Of a DNA stretch of 39,483 nucleotides, positions 1 to 33,730 are shown one piece after another (within the stretch, counting starts at the first letter, position 1; every line of letters begins with the position of its first letter). Source of the DNA: a virus (Duplodnaviria; Heunggongvirae; Uroviricota; Caudoviricetes); IMG/VR virus record IMGVR_UViG_2563366928_000012, positions 1 through 39,483 of that record; one strand, 5' to 3'. The position numbers and the translations under genes were made by a program. The notes beneath the pieces are model-generated. The model was not told where the DNA came from and ran no database searches. It was given only the letters and a program-made list of their open reading frames with translations.

Positions 1-2946
1 TTAGTGCTTCCCTTCTATTAAGTCTAACCTAGCTTTTATCTTATCCATTTCTCTGCGCTGCCATGCCGCCTCGATATAGAATAAGAGATCAGGTCTGACC
101 CCCCATCTAGATCCTGCTGGCGTTATTTCAACGCGCTCAATGATGTCTTCTATTACCATCACTGGATTATCATCCTCATCAACAATGATGCTCCCGTCAT
201 TATCAGTCAGCGGCATTTCCCTTTGGCCAGTAATGACGTCATCATATACTGCGGGATAATCGTCATAGCAAAGAAAGGCATAGCGGCATGTTGTGCTTTC
301 TTCTTCCATGAGTCCGTGAGAAATAAGAACATCACGAAGTTGCTGCGCGATTACACCATGATGTATCCTCGCCCCTTCTTCCCCCTTTATAGCGACAGCG
401 TTCAGCCATTTATAAGCGATATACCTGACGTCACCCCAGGCATCCAGCAATGCTTCGTCAGGAGAGACCGGCTCTGTCTTTAATGTTCCGTCACTGGTAA
501 CCACAGGATTGGAGCCAAGATAAACTGTCGAGAACCTGTTTCCCGGACCACCAAGAGCATTTACATTATCAAGATAAGGTTTAACATCTCCGTTCTCAAA
601 AAGATGTTCGAGTGCGTTATATACCGCGCGACGTGGAGTACTGCTTCTGGAACCATGCAACGTTATCATTGCACCATCTGCTGAAGACGTTGTTTCACCG
701 CCGCTAACGATTAATCTCTGAGCGGTAACATCATCAGACGGTACTTTCTTCGCAATAATGGCGTAATTACCCTCAAGTTTGACTTCCGCGCGAACTTGTC
801 CTGATGTACCTGCATGGACAGTCAGTGACTGGACGGCAACATCATCTGTGAAATCAACGGGTACAGGAACCGTCCTCACGCCTGACGTCGACATAAAAGT
901 AGGAAGCGTTCTGTTAGGAGTGGCTCCGTAGACAAAATCCCTTGAAACAAATTCTTCCTGTTTAATTTTCACCCTGAAACAATACAAATCAGCCGGGTGA
1001 CCATCGTGAACATAAGGATATTTTCTGTTGTTATCCCCTATGCTCCATGGGTTTAGAAAGTCTTCCCCACCGAAAATGTAGTACAGCCAGTTGTCTTTGA
1101 TACAAACTGAACCAACACCAACCGCAGAGTTAACTATTCCGCCCTGATAAATCTGATCAGTAACATTAACCCACTCTACATTATCCAGACTCCACTCATT
1201 GACGTTAACTCTGGTCATAAATGTTCTTGGATAATTTCCTGCATAACGGTTATCAGGTTCTCCTCCTTCCCACTCACCAAATGCGCGCTCACTGCCAAAA
1301 ATAATCAGCTCATCGCCAACTTTGGCAAAAGGAAGGTTTGAGTGATGAACATTATTTGGGAAGCGAAGAGAATTCCATGATGTACCTAAATCAGAGCTTC
1401 TGTGCAATGAACTACCGGGTTGAGTACTTAATGTCCCCCTGGTCGTCAGATACAGAATGCCATCATAATATTTTACACATGGCTCAGATGCATTCGCCTC
1501 ATATTCTACAGGTATGCGTCTGCGAACAAAGCTACCAGGAGAACCGAAAGCATCAGAGAAATAGAGTATCCCAAGCTCGCGTGGACCAATATCACCATTA
1601 TGGTAGCCAACAGCAAAACTGTTATCGCTAATCGTCGCAAAACTGTGAATCTCAGTAACAGGAGTGCTTCCGTCAACAAAAGAAGGAATAGTTCCAAGAC
1701 TGGTTTTTCTCCATGGTGACGAGTGAAATGATGTGCCAAAACTCCAGTATCTACCCTCGTTATTCTGATCCACATCCTGGGTATTTTGCGTCGTAACTGT
1801 AAAGGTATTTTTATCAATAACAGTAGTCACCGTCATATTCCCGGTAACACCTGTAACACCAGAGTTTGAGAAGTTGACAAAATCACCAGCAAATAATCCG
1901 TGATCAGTAATGCGAATATAAGCGACTTGCTGATTTGCTGCTTTCGTTATACCACCATAAACGCGAAGGCTGCGACTCATTGGGCGATCCCACAACTCTG
2001 CAACCTGCAGTTTATTTCCTCTCACGGTCCGCGTCTCAATTACAGCAAAAAGGCGATTTCTGACAACCCCCATACTCATGCAGTGATAGTTAACTGTGGG
2101 ATAGTTTTCATGTAAATCTGTAAGCCATTCCGGCGTTGTCCAGGTCTTCCCGTCATCTCCTGAGCGAACCCATGCAACATGGAGGTTATTTACACCATGG
2201 CGGTCTCCAGCCATAAAAGGCGCATAGATGACATTGTCATATACAAACGTTTTATCCTGCGTCCAGGCGTTGTACCACGGTGTATCTGTAATTTTAAATA
2301 ACTCTCCCTGGATAAAATCTTCAGAAGCATAAAAAAGAGGCTGACCCGGTATTCTCTCAAATAAAAAACGAGCATTTTTAAATCGACTGACATCTGGAAG
2401 AGTTGATACTTTAAAAGTAAGCCCTCGCCCATCTATCTTTTCACCACCTGTTGCAACAGAAAGTAATTCTGATAGAGCTGATGTATCATCATGAACACCA
2501 TCACCAATAGCCCCCCAACCTCTTACATCATAACTGTCTCTCCATCTTGCTATCTGAAGTTTTGGGTATTTATTCGCTCCATCTGGGTCTTCTAATTGCC
2601 GCCGTAACTGATCAGGATCATACTTCAGCACATTCGGAAAATAGAACTGCTGCGCACCATACGCATCATAAACAGCCATAGAATGGCCTTGCACAGTTAC
2701 GAATTTGGCAATCTGTCCGTTATATACAGGATATCCAGCAGCGTTAATGATGATTGGTTGCGAAACAGGAACGTGAGAGCCGTCTTCGTTTTCCACATAA
2801 ACCTGAATCTGGTTTTCAGGATTTACAGGGTCAGTGTCAATTTTACCGATATAAATTTTGCCATTGGCTACGGCTTTAAAAGAACGCGCCATAGTGAAGA
2901 GTTGCGAAGGCATCGATACGATCACATTGGCTGTAATGTCTCTCAT
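1..2946 (-). CDS. Tailspike: P22-type head-binding N-terminus fused to endo-N-acylneuraminidase (endosialidase) with C-terminal intramolecular chaperone domain
   Basis: 981 aa ORF. N-terminus [11 protein letters not shown]...[21 protein letters not shown] matches recalled P22 gp9 head-binding domain. Sialidase Asp-box motifs SGDDGKTW and SSDLGTSW. C-terminal region resembles the autocleaving chaperone domain of endosialidase tailspikes. GGAG RBS upstream of ATG at 2946. Confidence 0.8.
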
Positions 2947-3002
2947 TTAATTTGCTCCAGACACAAGGAATCGCCGCAGCATGGCTACGGTGAATTTTGG
3001 GC

Positions 3003-3029
3003 ATAAAAAAACCCAGCCGAAGCTGGGTC
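3003..3029 (-). terminator. Intrinsic terminator between ant and tailspike
   Basis: Minus-strand hairpin ACCCAGC-TTCG-GCTGGGT followed by TTTTTTTAT. Confidence 0.5.
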
Positions 3030-3046
3030 GTTGCGTTGGTTATCTG

Positions 3047-3949
3047 TCAGTAGTTATGTACTGAAGGAGGTAATTCTTTATTCTTAAGTCTCATCCATGC
3101 GGAAAGATTCGTTGGTCCGTCTGGCTCATTAATATCAACATCTCGTGTATGGTTGATTAAAACATCTCTCGCTATATCGATAATACGGGAGAACTCATAA
3201 CCGCAGTCATGACATCTGCCGGAATAGTTCGATTGAATTTGTTTCAGCGCCGGATACAGTTCGCGGAATAATGCCTGTGAGCGGTTGGCATAATCCCATA
3301 ACCATACAAGGCTGTTTGCTTCTTTTGCAGAAAGCTCGTTGACTTTCCTCTCTTGTTTGCCAATGAACTCACCTTCAAGCACTACCCTGTGGATGTACTC
3401 TACGGCTTGCGGTATCTGAGATGCATCAAGCTCTTCAATACTTTCCACATTGAAACGCTGATGAATCATTGCATAAGCTTCTGGGTACATTAGATGCTTT
3501 TTGCTGACCAGCATATTTACAGCATCACGAAGCGGAGTCCTGTCATCAACAGATGTTTTCTTACGTGCATTTTCTGCCTTTCCCTTTGTCCAGTAGTCAT
3601 GCAGCACAGTAAAGCATTCTTCCTGGTACTGAATCAGTTTATCGCGGATGTCAGCACGAACTTTCTCGGGGTTGATGCTGAACAGCCATCCATTTAACTT
3701 CTTCAAAGGAAGGCAGAGTAGCTTACGAAGCTTTCCATCAGCAGCAACCATATTCATATGAATACAGTTGAACTTATCTAGTTGTTTCATAAGTTTTTGT
3801 TGCTGAGTACCCCAGCTCATTCCGAGGTTTTCAACGATTGGCTTCATCGCAACATATGCAACTCCGGCAGCCATGGCGGTGATAATTTGCTGACCGTTGA
3901 ATGGTACGTAAGAGGTGTTCACTGCTTCTAAAATTGCTATACTATTCAT
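3047..3949 (-). CDS. ant: Antirepressor Ant (immI)
   Basis: 300 aa from internal ATG ([10 protein letters not shown]...) with GGAGAA RBS; position downstream of arc and upstream of tailspike as in P22. The longer track ORF start at 4015 is judged read-through. Confidence 0.7.
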
Positions 3950-4011
3950 GTTGGTTTTTCTCCACGGATTTACTGACAACCGAAGCCCTGACTGTTCCCG
4001 CAGTTGGGGCT

Positions 4012-4215
4012 TCAACTTTCTGATCTATCAGTTATATCTTTCCCTTCATATACTTCACCTATATTGCTAATGCTGGCAGAACATCCAAGATGCTTGTATC
4101 TTATGATGTCCAACACGCAGTCACTACACAGCATCCGACCTGTTTCTTTAGAGTAAATGTATGTTTGATCAGCGTCTGATTCGCTAATGCCGCAGAAACA
4201 ACATTCTTTACTCAT
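4012..4215 (-). CDS. Small Cys-rich (zinc-ribbon-like) protein inserted between arc and ant
   Basis: 67 aa with CCFCG, CSDC and a further Cys. Start ATG overlaps the arc stop (ATGA), suggesting translational coupling. Confidence 0.45.
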
Positions 4216-4364
4216 ACCATTACCCCCTCTCTCTTCAAGCTGTCTATCAGGCGCTTGATAACCTCTGAGTTAAACGACCTGCACTCTTCCTTTGCCCTGC
4301 TACCTATAGCATCCTTTAACGACTGCGGCATCCTTACCAAAATCTTACTTATTTCTTTCTCCAT
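4212..4364 (-). CDS. arc: Arc-like ribbon-helix-helix repressor
   Basis: 50 aa from ATG with GGAGGG RBS; motif CRSFNSEVIKRLIDSLKREG resembles P22 Arc (RSVNSE motif). Confidence 0.75.
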   Translation of the reverse strand: MEKEISKILVRMPQSLKDAIGSRAKEECRSFNSEVIKRLIDSLKREGVMV

Positions 4365-4478: not shown

Positions 4479-4727
4479 ATGGCAAAGGGTGTGTCAATTT
4501 CTCCAACTACGGTAAGAATCCCTGAATCTTTACGCGAGGCTCTTGCTGTCAGAGCATCAAAAAATGGTCGCTCTGTTAACTCCGAGATCGTCATGATTTT
4601 GCAAGCCGCGATTGATGAAGATAGGTCGCCAAAGTCAGTTGAGTCATTTGCTCAGCAAGAAGCTGACAAATTCAAAGAGGCGCTGCTTGAGACGCTAAAG
4701 ACCATGTATGGTAAGGATGAAAAATAA
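4479..4727 (+). CDS. mnt: Mnt-like repressor
   Basis: Starts MAKGVSISPTTVRIPESLREALAVRASKNGRSVNSEIV; RHH with GRSVNSE motif as in P22 Mnt/Arc family. Stop overlaps next ATG by one base. Confidence 0.75.
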   Translation: MAKGVSISPTTVRIPESLREALAVRASKNGRSVNSEIVMILQAAIDEDRSPKSVESFAQQEADKFKEALLETLKTMYGKDEK

Positions 4728-5263
4728 TGCTGCACACAATTCATTTCTTATGCCCCGTTAACACTGCCACTGTTGGGCAACTTCAGAACCACTGTCTCAC
4801 CGCATTATCTCAAGGCGCAACTGAATTAAATATCCATATATCAAGTCAGGGAGGGGAAACTGCCGCTGGCTTTACTGCGTATAACTTTCTTAAGTCACTC
4901 CCTGTTACCGTTAGAACTCACAACATAAGCAATGTTGAATCCATAGCTAATATCGTTTTCCTGGCTGGCTCAGAACGTTTCGCAAACCCATTATCAAGAT
5001 TCCTGTTACATCCTCTATTATGGTGCTTTGCCTCCCCAGCCGCCGACCATGCCAGATTGAGAGAGTACGGGAAATGCCTCGATAACGATCTTGATCGCTT
5101 CGTTGAGACGTTCAATATCGACATCGGAACCCATATTAGGTGGGCATCCCTGATAGCAGACTCGACCATTTTGGATGCTAACAAGGCTCTTGAGCATGGC
5201 ATAATTAATTCCATAAAAACTGCAAGGCTGGCATCCAATCAGGCAAACTGGTGGGTTGTTTGA
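4727..5263 (+). CDS. ClpP-like (S14 Clp-fold) serine protease homolog
   Basis: 178 aa. ISSQGGETAAGFTAYNFL...SIANIVFLAGSERF...LLHP aligns by eye with ClpP (INSPGGVITAG...SMGAFLLTAG...MIHQP), with Ser and His conserved. Coupled to mnt. Confidence 0.55.
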   Translation: MLHTIHFLCPVNTATVGQLQNHCLTALSQGATELNIHISSQGGETAAGFTAYNFLKSLPVTVRTHNISNVESIANIVFLAGSERFANPLSRFLLHPLLWCFASPAADHARLREYGKCLDNDLDRFVETFNIDIGTHIRWASLIADSTILDANKALEHGIINSIKTARLASNQANWWVV

Positions 5264-5286
5264 TGGGTAAATCATGATTACTCCTT

Positions 5287-5320
5287 ATAAAAAACCCACC
5301 TGACGGTGGGATTTTCTTAT
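5287..5320. terminator. Bidirectional intrinsic terminator between convergent genes
   Basis: AAAAAA-CCCACC-TGAC-GGTGGG-ATTTTCTTATT; A-run upstream and T-run downstream of the stem. Confidence 0.6.
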
Positions 5321-6309
5321 TCTTTATCTTTTAAGTCTATGGTTCTTTGTCCAATAACCTTTTCATCTATGTATTTCTCATACTCTTCTCGAGTATCAGA
5401 AACCATTGCAATACCAGTAACCTTACCTATTTGGGTTCTAAGAGCCTTAACTCCAACCTCTGATAAAAACTGGTGTATTTTATCGTTTTTGCTGCCTTTT
5501 TCTTCTTTTGACGTTTTTGCTAAATTAAATACCTTTCCTTCACTTCTGGCTAATGGGTAATAAATGTGATCTATCGTAAGATATTTAAACGCCCATGGTC
5601 GCCCTCTAACTGGTTTGTCTATACCATACAGACGATACCAATGCTCATAAAGTTCAGGGGTGAACTCTCTTTCATACTCACGAGCCTCTTCAGCAACATA
5701 TCGCTTATATGCTTGAATTACCTCTTCTTTTGTTCTGTCATACCCTGCCAAAGCATAAACAAGCCCCTGAATGCCCGCCTTGGCTGATGCATCAATAATG
5801 ATTCTGGCTTGCTTAGCAATCCCTTCCTGACTGGAAAGCAACTTACCTTCAGCTTTAGCATTAGAGATTGCTCGACATAAATCAATTAATATTGTTACAT
5901 CGTAGCCATGTATTACAGGATTAGCTGGAGTGTTCGTGCCCGCCTGTTTGTATTGAAAAATAAGAGGATTTTCAAGTTTTGCCCTTAATTCATGCCCGAT
6001 ATACTGAGAAATAGTTTTCCCCTGAATAAACTTTGGCAACCTGCTGCCACCTTCGCCAAGACCAATCGCTTCTCCCATGCCTCTCTGGCTAATAACGGCA
6101 GTTTTGTTATCATCATTTAACACATAGCACTCAACATCAATCCCGAATTCATGCTGGAACGATCCCTTATGCGTAGCAATTAATGGTTTATCCTTCCATC
6201 TTGCAGCCGCTGCTTTCTTTGCTATTTCAGAACGCTGCTCTTTAGTCAGCGACTTTGCGCGAGCGATACCGCCCTTAGCTTTCCCTTCGCCACTTTTCTT
6301 TTCAGTCAT
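5317..6309 (-). CDS. Hypothetical 330-aa protein with basic N-terminal putative DNA-binding region (accessory cargo)
   Basis: Start MTEKKSGEGKAKGGIARAKSLTKEQRSEIAKKAAAARW; rest not recognised with certainty. Longer track ORF start at 6384 rejected. Confidence 0.55.
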   Translation of the reverse strand: MTEKKSGEGKAKGGIARAKSLTKEQRSEIAKKAAAARWKDKPLIATHKGSFQHEFGIDVECYVLNDDNKTAVISQRGMGEAIGLGEGGSRLPKFIQGKTISQYIGHELRAKLENPLIFQYKQAGTNTPANPVIHGYDVTILIDLCRAISNAKAEGKLLSSQEGIAKQARIIIDASAKAGIQGLVYALAGYDRTKEEVIQAYKRYVAEEAREYEREFTPELYEHWYRLYGIDKPVRGRPWAFKYLTIDHIYYPLARSEGKVFNLAKTSKEEKGSKNDKIHQFLSEVGVKALRTQIGKVTGIAMVSDTREEYEKYIDEKVIGQRTIDLKDKE

Positions 6310-6310
6310 A

Positions 6311-6400
6311 ATGCAAGCACCTTTATTGTGATGTATGCTTGCATTATATGCACTGTACACACATACAAGCAAGCATAAAACCAAAACAAAATGCTTGCAT
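6311..6400. promoter_or_regulatory. Operator-like inverted repeat array in divergent promoter region
   Basis: Four copies of an 8-9 bp motif as two inverted pairs: ATGCAAGCA (6311-6319) / TGCTTGCAT (6336-6344) and GCAAGCAT (6369-6376) / ATGCTTGC (6391-6398). Confidence 0.5.
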
Positions 6401-6465
6401 TACAACCGCGCTACTCCAACTACACATTATCATCTGGTATCCTGAGCAAAACTAAGGAGGTTGGT

Positions 6466-6795
6466 GTGCTTGAATGGTTTCTGTTGGCTGCATTAGTCGT
6501 TTCTGGTTTGGTGTATGAGTATCGAATGCACTCTCTAACAAAAAAAATAGGAATTCTAGAAAACGAATATTGTGCTCTCAAATCCTCACTGGAACGTGAG
6601 CAAGGGGACTTAAAAATCTCTCTGTCTAGCATTGAGCGTTCTATAGAGAGCTTAGAGGATAAGGTTGATCGTATAAAGAATGAGGATATTCATGATATTA
6701 AGGACGACATATCCTTCTTAAAATCTTGGTTGAAAAATGTTGGGAAAATTGCCACATCAACACGAGATAAGCTCAATCCATCCATGGATGACTAA
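6466..6795 (+). CDS. Small membrane-anchored coiled-coil protein (accessory cargo)
   Basis: GTG start 5 nt after AGGAGG RBS; N-terminal hydrophobic helix LEWFLLAALVVSGLVYEY followed by charged heptad-like region. Converges on gp16 stop. Confidence 0.5.
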   Translation: MLEWFLLAALVVSGLVYEYRMHSLTKKIGILENEYCALKSSLEREQGDLKISLSSIERSIESLEDKVDRIKNEDIHDIKDDISFLKSWLKNVGKIATSTRDKLNPSMDD

Positions 6796-8931
6796 TTACT
6801 CCTGTGCCATTCCGCTTAGCGATGCCACAATTCCAGCTCTTGCTAAACGCTGGAACTCTTCGTTTCCTAGTGCCTCGCGTATTGCTTTTACGGCGGCCTT
6901 ATTTGCCATAAATCTGCGTTCCGCCGCCGCTAATGCGCCATCACTTGCCCCAACCTTAACTGCCTTTGTTGCCTCTTGAACAGCCTTTTCAATAGCGTAA
7001 CGACCGCTTCTAGTTGCGGATAATTTCGCTATCGCTCCTTTTGCCATTGCATCAATTGCCCCACCTGCAGCGCCACCCGCTATTGCTCCAATAACGCCTC
7101 CTCCAGAGAACCCTGCGATAGTGCCAGTAGTTCTAAAAGCGCCAGACAATGCGCTCTCTAAAACTGGATGAAGGCCATTCTCAAGAGTGCTAATGGCTGG
7201 CATAGATCGCCCTGTCTGTTCAACATATCGAAGTGGCTTTGTTGCTGCTCGTGCAAGTTCTCCGTATGAACTTGTAATCCTGCCAAGTTCTGGAGAATAT
7301 CGACTAATTGCCTTCACGTTTTGTGGGGTAAGAATAGTCGCGATATGCTTAATTCCAGCCTCTTCAGACTTACCTCCGCGTACCCCTTGCGATACCGCAT
7401 CTTGTAATATTGATGCAATTGCTGGCGCGCGTTCCGACTCAGGTAGGGCGCTTATTATTTTATGGAACTGACCTGTTCCACTTTTTGCTGAACCCTGCAA
7501 CGCCTTAGAGCCATTAGTTACCAACTGATCAGTTGCAAGGTCTCTACCAAACGCTGCTTCAGCCTGTTCTTGTGCTGTAAATCTTGCTTTTGACAGATCA
7601 TTAGCTTTTTGCCAGTCATCAAGAAAACCGCCATTTTGAGCCATTATGCGCATATCTTCCGTTGCTGCATCACGAAGCTCAGCCATGCGCCTTGCCGTAT
7701 TTGCCTCACCAGACCTTATATACTTCTGCTCTGCGTCAGCAAGTTTACTTCGCCATGCCTTCATGGCATCAAACGTGATTCCTTTTTTACTAGTTTTAGC
7801 ATAAGCAGATGCGAATTGTTTCATCTCAGGAGTTAGCGGCATGCCGGCCAAAATATCACCCTGAATTGTAGCGTTCAGGTTTGACATTCTGGCCTTTGCG
7901 TCAGGCATCGTGGAGCGGACGCTATCCCATGCGGCCTTTTCTGAATTTTTCATTTTATCAATACTTGCCAAAACCCTTTGTTTTATGGCTGCACTTTTTT
8001 CTGATGCAGTTCCTGCTTCAGCCCCAAACTCATCCAATGCTGAGTTAAATTTCGACTCTATTTCACTGAATGCTTTGGTGTGTGCATCCTGTGTAATTCC
8101 GGGCTTTGACGCCAGAATCCCCTCCGCCTGAGCAAGACCACGACTACCTGATCTCATGCCAGGAGTTAATGCGTTGATATCTATTCCAGCAGTATCTGCT
8201 GCTTTTGCTATTTCGTCTGACACATTAGCTGACTGTCTGGCAATAATCTCTCTTCCTGTACCAGACTTTGCCATTTTCGAAACATCAGCAGCGGAATTTA
8301 TTGCCCCGCCACCAAGAACTTGAGGTGATTTAGAGGTTAAGATCCTTCCAGCCCCAGAAAGTATCCCCTGAGCACCAATATTGATACCACCGTTAATGGC
8401 AGCATTTTGTGCAAAGTCGCCCTCCTGATTTGCAGCATCAGCAAGAGAACCTGCAATCATGTTTCCTGCGGAACCGATATCTCCAGCGAGCTTTGCTGTC
8501 GCTCCAGCAGCTTTTGCCGCTGTGCCAATTGGCAGGAGATACCCACCAATTGTTTCACCGGCTTGCGCGTAAGGGTCTGTCGGTCGCTCGACAGGGCGAT
8601 AAACATCATCCAAAACCTTGGGGCCACCAAGCCCCTGGCTGATTGCATTAATCAGACTTGCGCCACCCTGCAATACGTCAAATGGTATGTTTACCAGACC
8701 ACGACCAGCCTGTTCTGCAATTTGCCCTGCACTTTGACCACCAGTGAGCCAATCGCCAGCTTGTTGCATCAATGATGGTTCTTCCCGTGTTGGTGCATTA
8801 TTGGCCTGATTAACTGTTTGTTGCTGAACAGCCTGACCAGCAAAATACTCATCAATGGCGGTGCCAATATCTTCCGTGCTCGTACCATCAGGAAAGGTAA
8901 ATGTCTTACCGTTTGCAGTAACTTTCATCAT
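6796..8931 (-). CDS. Ejection (injection) protein, P22 gp16-like
   Basis: 711 aa, Ala/Gly-rich, position after gp20 in the conserved P22 order 7-20-16. Confidence 0.65.
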
Positions 8932-23167: not shown

Positions 23168-23243
23168 TGGTGCTGGTTAACGGACTTGAACCGCTACCCA
23201 TTCGCTTACAAGGCGACTGCTCTACCATTGGAGCTAAACCAGC
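23168..23243 (-). tRNA. tRNA, anticodon UGU (Thr) by hand fold
   Basis: 76 nt cloverleaf: acceptor GCTGGTT/AACCAGC, D-stem GCTC/GAGC, anticodon loop CTTGTAA, T-loop TTCAAGT, encoded 3' ACCA. Confidence 0.6.
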
Positions 23244-23248
23244 ATGTT

Positions 23249-23323
23249 TGGCGGGACAGCGTGGACTCGAACCACGATAAGAAGGTTAACAGCCTTCCGT
23301 AATGACCTTTATACGACTGACCC
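23249..23323 (-). tRNA. tRNA-like, anticodon GUU (Asn) by hand fold, imperfect stems
   Basis: 75 nt: anticodon stem GAAGG/CCTTC, loop CTGTTAA, T-arm CGTGG-TTCGAGT-CCACG, 3' GCCA; one acceptor-stem and one D-stem mismatch. Confidence 0.45.
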
Positions 23324-33528: not shown

Positions 33529-33589
33529 ATGCATACCAATAACGCTTCACTCGAGGCGTTTTTCGTTATGTATAAATAAGGAGCACACC

Positions 33590-33730
33590 ATGCAATATGC
33601 CATTGCAGGGTGGCCTGTTGCTGGCTGCCCTTCCGAATCTTTACTTGAACGAATCACCCGTAAATTACGTGACGGATGGAAACGCCTTATCGACATACTT
33701 AATCAGCCAGGAGTCCCCAAAAATGGATAA
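33590..33730 (+). CDS. Small hypothetical protein
   Basis: 46 aa (MQYAIAGWPVAGCPSESLL...), TAAGGAG RBS. Confidence 0.4.
   Translation: MQYAIAGWPVAGCPSESLLERITRKLRDGWKRLIDILNQPGVPKNG

Follow-up and report, generated by a model that had tools for sequence, protein, structure and literature searches.

An array of palindromic boxes interlocked with the promoter of a prophage P63C gene suggests a portable self-regulation unit

Domain-shuffled Bro-N, KilA-N, P63C, and ANT proteins of DNA viruses were reportedly described by Iyer, Koonin, and Aravind in 2002, in a study that is said to be the source of the Pfam family PF10546. In the literature that we found, the P63C family itself is mentioned only in passing. 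BstA is a proven prophage abortive-infection protein that comes with a DNA self-immunity element, aba (Owen et al. 2021, PMC8585504). This element is DNA based and 63 bp long, being composed of the 29 bp upstream of the gene and its first 34 bp (PMC8585504). According to the parts of the reports available to us, the region between genes 16 and 9 of P22-like phages, known as the "ant moron," is in rapid flux (Villafane et al. 2008, PMC2629481); it holds hkcB or hkcC in HK620 and epsilon34, while sieA occupies the slot in only 22 of 66 P22-like phages (PMC2629481, PMC10883804).

The locus described here was found in a 39,483-nt stretch of virus DNA, referred to below as the window. The gp16-mnt interval, which a first-pass annotation had taken to carry variable cargo in the form of three unrelated genes, turned out to be the known "ant moron" (PMC2629481, in its available part) filled with three independent cassettes. 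Its flanks were also as proposed, with a bidirectional terminator on one side and the gp16 stop at 6796 on the other. The features discussed are collected in Table 1.

Table 1. Positions of the P63C gene, its promoter and boxes, and the neighbouring features in the window
Feature	Position	Strand	Details
Bidirectional intrinsic terminator	5295..5310	.	Closes the P63C unit and, on the opposite side, the mnt-ClpP-like unit
P63C-family gene, 330 aa	5317..6309	-	ORF; PF10546; phrog_2384
Basic two-helix N-terminal tag, KAKGGIARAKSLTKEQRSEIAKKAAAARWK	6196..6288 (codons 8-38)	-	Putative box-binding element
Box D	6311-6320		Letters ATGCAAGCAC, gene sense GTGCTTGCAT; flanked by the Shine-Dalgarno AAGGTG and the ATG at 6309
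Box C	6335-6344		Letters ATGCTTGCAT, gene sense ATGCAAGCAT; begins with the final two bases of the -10
-10 hexamer TATAAT of the P63C promoter	6343..6348	-	PWM score 11.0
Box B	6367-6376		Letters AAGCAAGCAT, gene sense ATGCTTGCTT; contains the -35 hexamer TTGCTT (6372-6367)
Box A	6391-6400		Letters ATGCTTGCAT, gene sense ATGCAAGCAT; putative distal operator
Conserved junction GGTATCCTG..AAAACTAAGGAGGTTGGTGTG	6435..6468	+	Shine-Dalgarno and GTG for the exchangeable small ORF
hkcB homologue, 109 aa	6466..6795	+	phrog_5962 (E 1.9e-61); HK620 hkcB

The array consists of four quasi-palindromic 10-bp boxes with the consensus ATGCWWGCAT (ATGC-WW-GCAT), spans positions 6311-6400, and is non-random and strongly conserved. 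In the whole 39.5-kb window, six matches with at most one mismatch were observed versus 8.7 expected, dispersed along its length, in shuffles, and the Poisson probability of four boxes falling inside 90 bp, corrected for window positions, is about 3e-6. The match count and the arm lengths bear out the earlier description of four motif copies arranged as two inverted pairs: one pair has perfect 12-nt arms (6308-6319 and 6336-6347) and the other has arms of 8 to 9 nt (6369-6376 and 6391-6398). A scan of the whole window found no copy of the box 10-mer elsewhere in the phage, and eight copies of its 7-mer core outside the array versus about five expected.

The boxes are interlocked with the predicted promoter of the P63C gene, TTGCTT-18-TATAAT, in which the gap between the -35 and the -10 is 18 bp and whose score of 11.0 is in the top 10 of 394,480 window positions. 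The -35 falls within box B; box C merges with the -10 and contains the predicted transcription start (about 6336); box D adjoins the ATG; and box A is farther upstream, its centre about 60 bp from the transcription start. Repeated palindromes overlap the -35, the -10, the transcription start, and the start codon. Among 26 diverged arrays, the only invariant columns were the box cores and the T,A..A,T of the box-C-fused -10, these -10 bases being invariant or nearly so. The spacings between the boxes are fixed at 23-24, 31-32 (or 22), and 23-26 bp, and that between boxes B and C is what a promoter spacer of 17-18 bp demands. A reading of the array as a replication origin or a set of iterons was rejected, since the promoter fully accounts for the geometry and the phage has a replication module of its own.

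P63C homologues gave 2766 matches, falling into 1888 clusters at 50% identity, and are 60-70% identical across beta- and gammaproteobacteria. Arrays were found upstream of P63C genes in alpha-, beta-, and gammaproteobacteria, the named hosts being Acetobacteraceae and Ralstonia, and matches in a genome scan came from Nitrosomonas, Acetobacter, and alpha- and betaproteobacterial MAGs. Conservation of the array in homologues, whose absence had been named as a possible refutation, was found down to about 30% protein identity: the array is conserved at 30-100% identity of the P63C protein, and the spacers and the neighbouring genes are unrelated. When viral contigs were scanned for box pairs at the DNA level only, a P63C gene started at the boxes in 66 of the 80 loci analysed. 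This particular cassette is present in 67 of 5426 complete E. coli genomes. Because the array is conserved in such distant homologues and is interwoven with the promoter, it appears to be an operator-type element of an autoregulated gene. Of the autoregulated module put forward in the first-pass annotation, this is the part that stands, on the grounds of conservation and interweaving; the pairing of two genes, one of them for a membrane protein, does not.

The array had been thought to overlap both divergent start regions. In fact only the start of the 330-aa gene is touched, the GTG of the small gene at 6466 lying 66 nt beyond the array, and the array belongs to the minus-strand P63C gene and not to the plus-strand hkcB homologue. 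This GTG, with the Shine-Dalgarno TAAGGAGG ahead of it, is the most likely start of the small gene and is annotated as such in HK620 and RefSeq; an ATG at 6391, inside box A, was dismissed as an ORF-calling artefact. The small ORF ends at 6795 and abuts the gp16 stop. Its product, earlier described as a membrane-anchored coiled-coil protein, is predicted to have a hydrophobic N-terminus that serves as a membrane anchor and, after it, a single long helix (residues 2-103, pLDDT 88). The conserved junction in front of it is a neighbour of the P63C cassette and lies outside it.

It is highly improbable that one bidirectional array governs both a regulator or effector and a membrane partner, the pair forming a two-gene module. 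The genes do stand next to each other in divergent orientation, E. coli P22-like prophages always have a small membrane or secreted ORF opposite P63C, and box A lies about 45 bp upstream of the start expected from a weak TATCAT -10. However, the slot beside the array and P63C holds at least eight unrelated small ORFs, and in other phages none, and P63C with its array occurs in many phages that have a terminator and unrelated genes upstream. Conversely, hkcB is present alongside hkcC in HK620, which has neither the array nor P63C, and in E. coli genomes hkcB-region matches were found in 299 versus the cassette in 67. A search of the intergenic region gave no convincing sigma-70-type promoter for hkcB, the best plus-strand score being 7.3 versus 11.0 for the P63C promoter. 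The alternative small-ORF families, the occurrence of hkcB without P63C in HK620, and the missing hkcB promoter all contradict the two-gene module, and the hkcB homologue is an independent, interchangeable cassette rather than a partner of P63C.

The AA/TT orientation of the boxes is conserved such that A pairs with B and C with D, and the folding energy of the array as a whole is -46.8 kcal/mol (z -6.3); were transcription to begin upstream of box C, a 14-bp hairpin would cover the AUG (-16.5 kcal/mol, z -4.1). The boxes might accordingly be read not as duplex protein sites but as nucleic-acid hairpins, either in an mRNA leader hiding the Shine-Dalgarno and the AUG or as cruciform or single-stranded DNA. 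We regard this as very unlikely. With the -10 fused to box C, transcription would begin at the 3' end of that box and yield a leader without structure (z +0.56); boxes A and B are located upstream of the promoter, and the stems never reach past the boxes. Nor does pairing require the strict sequence invariance seen, while the covariation term of +0.11 lends no support, with a single double-sided change among 17 predicted pairs and a second variable pair that is broken in 7 of the 26 sequences. Since, in addition, no Rfam family was matched beyond sub-threshold generic hairpins (miRNA precursors), an RNA element was rejected.

The P63C protein starts with a basic tag, whose helices cover residues 10-20 and 23-39 in the AF2 model. 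Searches of Pfam, NCBIfam, and the PDB matched the tag to no known DNA-binding family; sub-threshold, compositional matches to LEA_5, CSLinker (an algal Rubisco-linker motif), and bHLH were the only Pfam and NCBIfam candidates and were rejected. Literature searches for the box sequence and the tag peptide returned nothing relevant. Among the distinct P63C loci, 53 have the tag and at least two boxes, 2 have the tag and fewer than two boxes, none has boxes only, and 10 have neither (Fisher p 3.7e-10, for protein-selected distinct loci and with phylogeny ignored). The tag occurs without canonical boxes in L069 and L193. One of the tag-less loci, L026, encodes a protein 58% identical to that of the window in which the N-terminus is replaced, and has no boxes. 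In E. coli, the array and the first 36 or so codons are near-identical in two P63C alleles whose identity drops to just 54% downstream, and the mosaic junction with the second allele falls at about 6194, just past the tag. The sites and the presumed DNA-binding part are thus inherited and lost together, both in this mosaic and in the counts for P63C and for RhuM and BstA given below. From this strict co-occurrence the basic N-terminus is likely to be the DNA-binding part, and the suggestion to that effect in the first-pass annotation gains support from sequence comparison.

The same motif was found at the C-terminus of small proteins of 76-91 aa with no upstream boxes, which means that the motif by itself does not imply boxes. 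A promoter and the adjacent 5' coding DNA are inherited jointly, so that linkage rather than interaction is possible in principle; against linkage, conservation of the tag is confined to the protein level, in hosts of very different GC content.

The tag and the boxes are also found at the head of other protein bodies. Among RhuM/PDC-S05 homologues, 4 are tagged and have boxes, 26 are untagged and lack them, none has the tag only, and 1 is untagged yet passed the box count (p 1.6e-4, phylogeny ignored). The boxes of that single untagged locus are two degenerate matches judged to be due to chance. As for BstA, one lineage has the tag and the boxes versus 17 untagged relatives without boxes, and no boxes could be detected in L244, another tagged relative; within the BstA family alone the association is not significant (p 0.11; 1/1/0/17, phylogeny ignored). 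Taken together, the tag and the boxes suggest, as far as sequences can tell, an undescribed portable self-regulation unit heading P63C, BstA, and RhuM proteins.

The boxes could instead be sites for some other factor, such as a host regulator, LexA, or another phage protein, with the tag having an unrelated role. The promoter spacer contains a LexA-like CTGT-N8-ACAA at 6353-6368, the sequence TACAGTG is conserved in enterobacterial arrays, and binding by the tag is a prediction. Still, such a factor is quite unlikely, as the tagged protein is the sole component common to all loci, whose neighbours, phage types, and hosts vary, as untagged relatives in similar phages lack boxes, and as the box 10-mer occurs nowhere else in the phage. 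LexA control was rejected: scored as the 20-mer CACTGTACACACATACAAGC (6351-6370), using a reconstructed heterology matrix, the LexA-like site has a heterology index of 12.5, the sixth best in the window and no better than several background sites.

Beyond the tag, the P63C protein consists of an alpha/beta domain at about aa 43-137 and a helical region that includes the Pfam P63C match (aa 202-289, 35.9 bits versus a cutoff of 26.1); the AF2 model has a pLDDT of 75.6. PF10546 was hit by all 55 aligned relatives, and phrog_2384 matched the window protein over aa 6-328 (E 4.5e-103). The first-pass annotation had raised a Bro-N- or KilA-N-like domain. None of the 55 family members matched the Pfam models for Bro-N (PF02498) or KilA-N at E up to 1, and what speaks for such a domain are weak signals: Foldseek matches of the alpha/beta domain to Bro-N proteins (E 0.003-0.3), "repressor domain" proteins, and Mx8 p63, and an hhalign match between the tag-less P63C and tag-less BstA profiles (E/P 0.0023, probability 12%, 115 columns). 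Neither the window protein nor P0209 and L201 matched any PADLOC defence model, and the BstA profile (PADLOC PDLC02356/phrog_6287) was not matched by the window protein, whose PHROG is phrog_2384.

A CI-type repressor (HTH_3 plus Peptidase_S24) is encoded directly upstream of P63C in 7 of 19 diverse loci, and in Azotobacter the gene order is Cro/CI, nuclease, P63C, ParE-Phd; the window gene sits in the gp16-mnt slot and not downstream of a cI-type repressor. The P63C body is most likely a defence or exclusion effector, because its sister bodies are proven or candidate anti-phage proteins and because it occupies lysogen-expressed slots (downstream of cI, or that of sieA here). On this analysis, P63C is probably a lysogen-expressed, defence-type effector.

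The explanation that we favour overall, and that we consider reasonably probable on these comparisons, is a portable cassette of tag and boxes with a self-repressing P63C promoter and a defence-type effector. The interval would then be a self-contained prophage "moron" made up of a promoter with operators, one gene, and a terminator. The tag (the first 38 or so residues) would bind the boxes as a dimer or higher oligomer and, once bound, shut off its own promoter, so that the lysogen would contain a small, steady amount of the protein. Recombination would have placed the tag and boxes as a cassette before P63C, BstA, and RhuM/PDC-S05 bodies, and the P63C body would be a DNA-directed defence or exclusion effector whose dose is tightly limited.

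Compatible with this explanation is the idea that the array serves above all as a DNA decoy or self-immunity element resembling aba, promoter repression being secondary: the boxes on the replicating prophage would bind the tag and neutralise the effector, and the phage would thereby spare its own lytic growth. The aba element of BstA has the same position as the array (PMC8585504), one BstA lineage has the tag and boxes at that position, and four sites per genome would amplify with replication. As the main function of the array this is nevertheless unlikely. Different BstA variants have different, cognate aba elements, whereas the box cores are invariant across the whole P63C family and three protein families and would therefore give cross-immunity to any carrier; moreover, transcriptional control is the simpler explanation for boxes so closely joined to the -35, the -10, and the start codon. 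A bolder extension of the favoured self-repressing cassette, which we offer tentatively, is that the tag and boxes form a mobile, hitherto unrecognised "self-recognition" device of prophage immunity genes that clamps the promoter in the lysogen and then, like aba, disarms or titrates the effector on replicating phage DNA, and that P63C, whose members number in the thousands among Proteobacteria, is a new single-gene abortive-infection or exclusion system of BstA-like design.

If the self-repressing cassette is real, it provides a concrete regulatory logic and a functional lead for a very widespread prophage family, P63C, and links it by regulation to BstA and the RhuM/PDC-S05 candidates. The tag would be a candidate new peptide for sequence-specific DNA binding, one whose 10-bp target is known and is maintained from enterobacteria through to alphaproteobacteria, and it would be compact enough for use as a tool. 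"Guilt by shared promoter-tag" would become a route to further prophage defence genes, and the unit might be a general answer to how effectors stay harmless to their own host and phage.

Compared with the described systems, the window locus has the same 16-9 position as the "ant moron" with P22 SieA (Leavitt et al. 2024, PMC10883804, in its available part). The available parts of PMC2629481 and PMC10883804 do not mention a P63C gene or the array, and neither cargo gene of the window was identified as a relative of SieA, both belonging to unnamed PHROG families when judged by family assignment alone. The window protein belongs to PF10546, and its alpha/beta domain resembles, if weakly, Bro-N proteins and Mx8 p63 in Foldseek; it differs from the Bro-N/KilA-N/P63C/ANT proteins in that Pfam models for the first two match none of the 55 members and in that the literature found on that group mentions neither tag nor array.

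Autoregulated operators (those of lambda cI at OR, of P22 Arc and Mnt in the same immI region, and of type II antitoxins) likewise have several short palindromes over the -35, the -10, and the start site of their own gene, and a small N-terminal DNA-binding module, predicted in the case of P63C, on a different functional body. Unlike these, the tag is not a recognisable helix-turn-helix, ribbon-helix-helix, or AbrB domain (Pfam, NCBIfam, PDB), and one operator sequence is kept across bacterial classes and three protein families, with no diversification into immunity types.

The likeness to BstA extends to the protein, the position of the gene, and the DNA element. Both are single prophage proteins of about 300-360 aa in which an N-terminal alpha/beta domain, putatively DNA binding, precedes a helical C-terminal part; the genes of both often directly follow that of the cI repressor, as in 7 of 19 diverse P63C loci; each has a short DNA element across the start of its gene; and one BstA lineage has the identical tag and boxes. 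P63C differs in its lack of a BstA profile match, in the weakness of the hhalign alignment (E 0.0023), and in that its defence activity is putative whereas that of BstA is proven. Finally, aba consists of one cognate sequence of 63 bp that bears no relation to ATGCWWGCAT, while the P63C element comprises four invariant palindromes merged with the promoter.

The sequence represents a P22-like E. coli prophage (Lederbergvirus) in reversed reading direction (see the table below). The gp16-to-gene 9 interval of P22-like phages is hypervariable and known as the "ant moron" (PMC2629481), and sieA is found there in a minority of such phages (PMC10883804). Between arc and ant lies a 67-aa cysteine-rich ORF (4012-4215; phrog_7150, no Pfam match) that overlaps arc by 4 nt and abuts the sar RNA match. 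In the immI region, the ClpP-like gene and the stop codon of mnt overlap (ATAATG), which makes translational coupling of the two probable.

Features of the prophage, and small proteins of other loci (positions within those loci) carrying the tag motif at their C-terminus
Feature	Position	Strand	Remark
Tailspike	1-2946	-	
ant	3047-3952	-	
sar RNA	3950-4017		Rfam
arc	4212-4364	-	
mnt	4479-4727	+	
ClpP-like gene	4727-5263	+	178 aa
Bidirectional terminator	5295-5310		
330-aa ORF (P63C)	5317-6309	-	
Small ORF (hkcB homologue)	end at 6795	+	
gp16	6796-8931	-	
Two adjacent tRNA genes	23171-23323		Rfam
Lambda cIII thermoregulator element	33577-33635		Rfam
Small protein, locus L189	2201-2434	-	
Small protein, locus L197	1159-1411	+	
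Small protein, locus L198	about 2333-2566	-	
Small proteins, loci L125, L127, L153			

Four ATGCWWGCAT boxes, A to D, begin at 6391, 6367, 6335, and 6311, while only two further matches with at most one mismatch occur elsewhere in the 39.5 kb, against 8.7 expected in the whole window. The box positions and an inverted-repeat analysis bore out the first-pass annotation's description of two inverted pairs. Its claim that the array overlaps both gene starts held for the 330-aa gene and failed for the small one: the HK620 hkcB annotation and RefSeq put the start of the latter at GTG 6466, behind TAAGGAGG, which is almost certainly correct, and the array therefore touches the start of the 330-aa gene alone.

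Profile searches assigned the 330-aa protein to Pfam P63C and phrog_2384. An initial search gave the family 2766 matches, of which many from beta- and gammaproteobacteria were 60-70% identical, and there were 1888 clusters at 50% identity; literature searches for the domain yielded passing mentions only. In an AF2 model (pLDDT 75.6, pTM 0.50), two N-terminal helices (10-20 and 23-39) are followed by an alpha/beta domain (43-137) and then by long helices. No solved structure was convincingly similar. The suggested Bro-N/KilA-N relationship found no Pfam match in any family member examined, and weak matches to Bro-N proteins, "repressor domain" proteins, and Mx8 p63 among predicted viral structures. 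The cassette (6200-6440) was present in 67 of 5426 complete E. coli genomes, with a P63C annotation in every case, and 299 E. coli genomes matched some part of a 5264-6800 query, mostly its hkcB/gp16 end. In E. coli GPEC1405 (NZ_CM142774.1 4775184-4777777), an IS5-family transposase lies inside this P63C gene, an example of a naturally disrupted allele.

The repeats proved to be conserved in homologues. At 65 viral-contig loci selected by protein, the gene was preceded by the same four boxes, near positions -90, -66, -34, and -10. This was so even for proteins 45-66% identical from GC-rich hosts, and the arrays had unrelated spacers, with upstream neighbours that were unrelated or a terminator; named hosts with the array include Ralstonia and an Acetobacteraceae MAG. 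When viral contigs were scanned with the DNA pattern only, a P63C gene started at the boxes in 66 of the 80 loci analysed. A scan of 298 Gb of genomes, in which chance was expected to account for most matches, gave a tagged ORF at the boxes in 17 of 120 loci, P63C in 15 of these.

In an alignment of 26 diverged arrays, the cores of the boxes were invariant, as was the T,A..A,T of a hexamer that shares its final two bases with the beginning of box C. The -35 element is either TTGCWT within box B or TTGACA directly next to that box, and this accounts for the two distances between boxes B and C, 31-32 and 22 bp. The window's promoter, TTGCTT-18-TATAAT, ranked in the top 10 of ~394,000 scored positions, and nothing comparable was found on the plus strand of the region. 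By its geometry, transcription would begin at box C's 3' end. Reading the array as an RNA element was rejected, since the leader from that start folded as unstructured and neither covariation nor Rfam support was found. The promoter spacer also contains a LexA-like CTGT-N8-ACAA (6351-6370) whose heterology index, 12.5, was no better than that of background sites; enterobacterial arrays conserve TACAGTG.

The array goes together with a basic two-helix tag at the protein's N-terminus, KGGxARAxxL(S/T)xExRxxIAxKAAxxRW, which no entry in Pfam, NCBIfam, or PDB covers; P63C members devoid of it were also devoid of boxes. Among protein-selected distinct loci, 53 had the tag and at least two boxes, 2 the tag and fewer, none boxes without the tag, and 10 neither (Fisher p 3.7e-10, uncorrected for phylogeny). 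Several independent lineages contributed, including one (L026) whose protein is 58% identical to the window's and has a replaced N-terminus. An HMM of the tag was then used to find it on other protein bodies. Tag and boxes recurred in the same geometry with RhuM-family proteins in three lineages (PF13310, E 1.5e-65; PADLOC candidate PDC-S05, E 6e-107) and with a BstA homologue (PADLOC BstA, E 6e-122; phrog_6287). Boxes were present at 4/4 tagged RhuM loci and absent from 26/27 untagged ones (p 1.6e-4); we judge the exception, which passed on two degenerate matches, to be due to chance. None of 17 untagged BstA relatives had boxes, and the association within this family alone was not significant (p 0.11), because a second tagged relative (L244) lacked them.

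Several variants were also observed. The tagged BstA locus L243 (about 1430-1503) has three boxes. The last bases of the box joined to the -10 (TAAAAT) are the start codon ATG, which would give a leaderless mRNA. L069 (about 3900-4000), a P63C relative with 32% identity, has a tag lacking the final RW and no canonical boxes, with repeated CGTACAT-type motifs upstream instead, possibly reflecting a changed specificity. In a bacterial genome (L374, about 2698-4200), an in-frame fusion joins tag and boxes to an HMGL-like (PF00682) enzyme; this is a scar of recombination or else a fourth kind of body on the cassette. Proteins of 76-91 aa carry the motif at the C-terminus without boxes upstream; three of the six adjoin a P63C gene, in one case tag-less, and they could act in trans as copies of the tag.

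From the four invariant palindromes interlaced with the promoter and the strict association of the tag with them on three unrelated bodies, we infer a recombinationally portable cassette of tag and boxes, the tag binding the boxes and repressing its own promoter. Speculatively, a contiguous 10-bp palindrome with 4-bp half-sites would suit a dimer of basic helices in one major groove. Such a cassette, apparently common to P63C, BstA, and RhuM/PDC-S05, was unexpected; the literature searched on P63C, the box sequence, and the tag gave no description of it.

The proposed autoregulated two-gene module shrinks to one gene: autoregulation of the P63C unit is well supported by the sequence comparisons, and the small membrane protein is a bystander cassette, not its partner. 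In E. coli M15, another small ORF accompanies the 330-aa gene and array; a second large-gene allele, only ~54% identical, is found in E. coli VR50 and phage 611R6, with an array and first ~36 codons nearly identical to the window's; HK620 has hkcB beside hkcC and no array; and phages EC.P3, phiv205-1, and PhiR12 have the ClpP-like gene alongside mnt without a P63C gene. These comparisons indicate that P63C plus array, the small ORF, and the ClpP-like gene, earlier taken as cargo replacing sieA, are three independent cassettes in a variable interval. The window and L005-L066 share a conserved SD-GTG junction (6435-6468, GGTATCCTG..AAAACTAAGGAGGTTGGTGTG), behind which different E. coli P22-like prophages carry small ORFs (62-164 aa) of at least 8 unrelated families, 7 of these with a hydrophobic N-terminus; it resembles a recombination slot in which genes for small secreted or membrane proteins use a common translation start. 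HkcB itself is predicted to be a single helix (residues 2-103).

For the prophage protein BstA, abortive infection is proven; it has a KilA-N-like N-domain and is usually encoded downstream of cI, and its DNA self-immunity element, aba, straddles the start of the gene (PMC8585504). That the array is an aba-like decoy is a minority alternative, compatible with repression. After removal of the tags from both, the P63C and BstA profiles aligned weakly over the N-domain (E 0.0023). By analogy, the chances that the P63C body serves in defence or exclusion seem roughly even. Unlike BstA, P63C lies outside PADLOC, none of whose models matched it; P63C genes are nevertheless found in prophage slots similar to those of BstA: an HTH_3 plus Peptidase_S24 repressor lies directly ahead in 7 of 19 diverse loci, a nuclease and a ParE-Phd pair flank the gene in Azotobacter, and in the window it takes the sieA slot.
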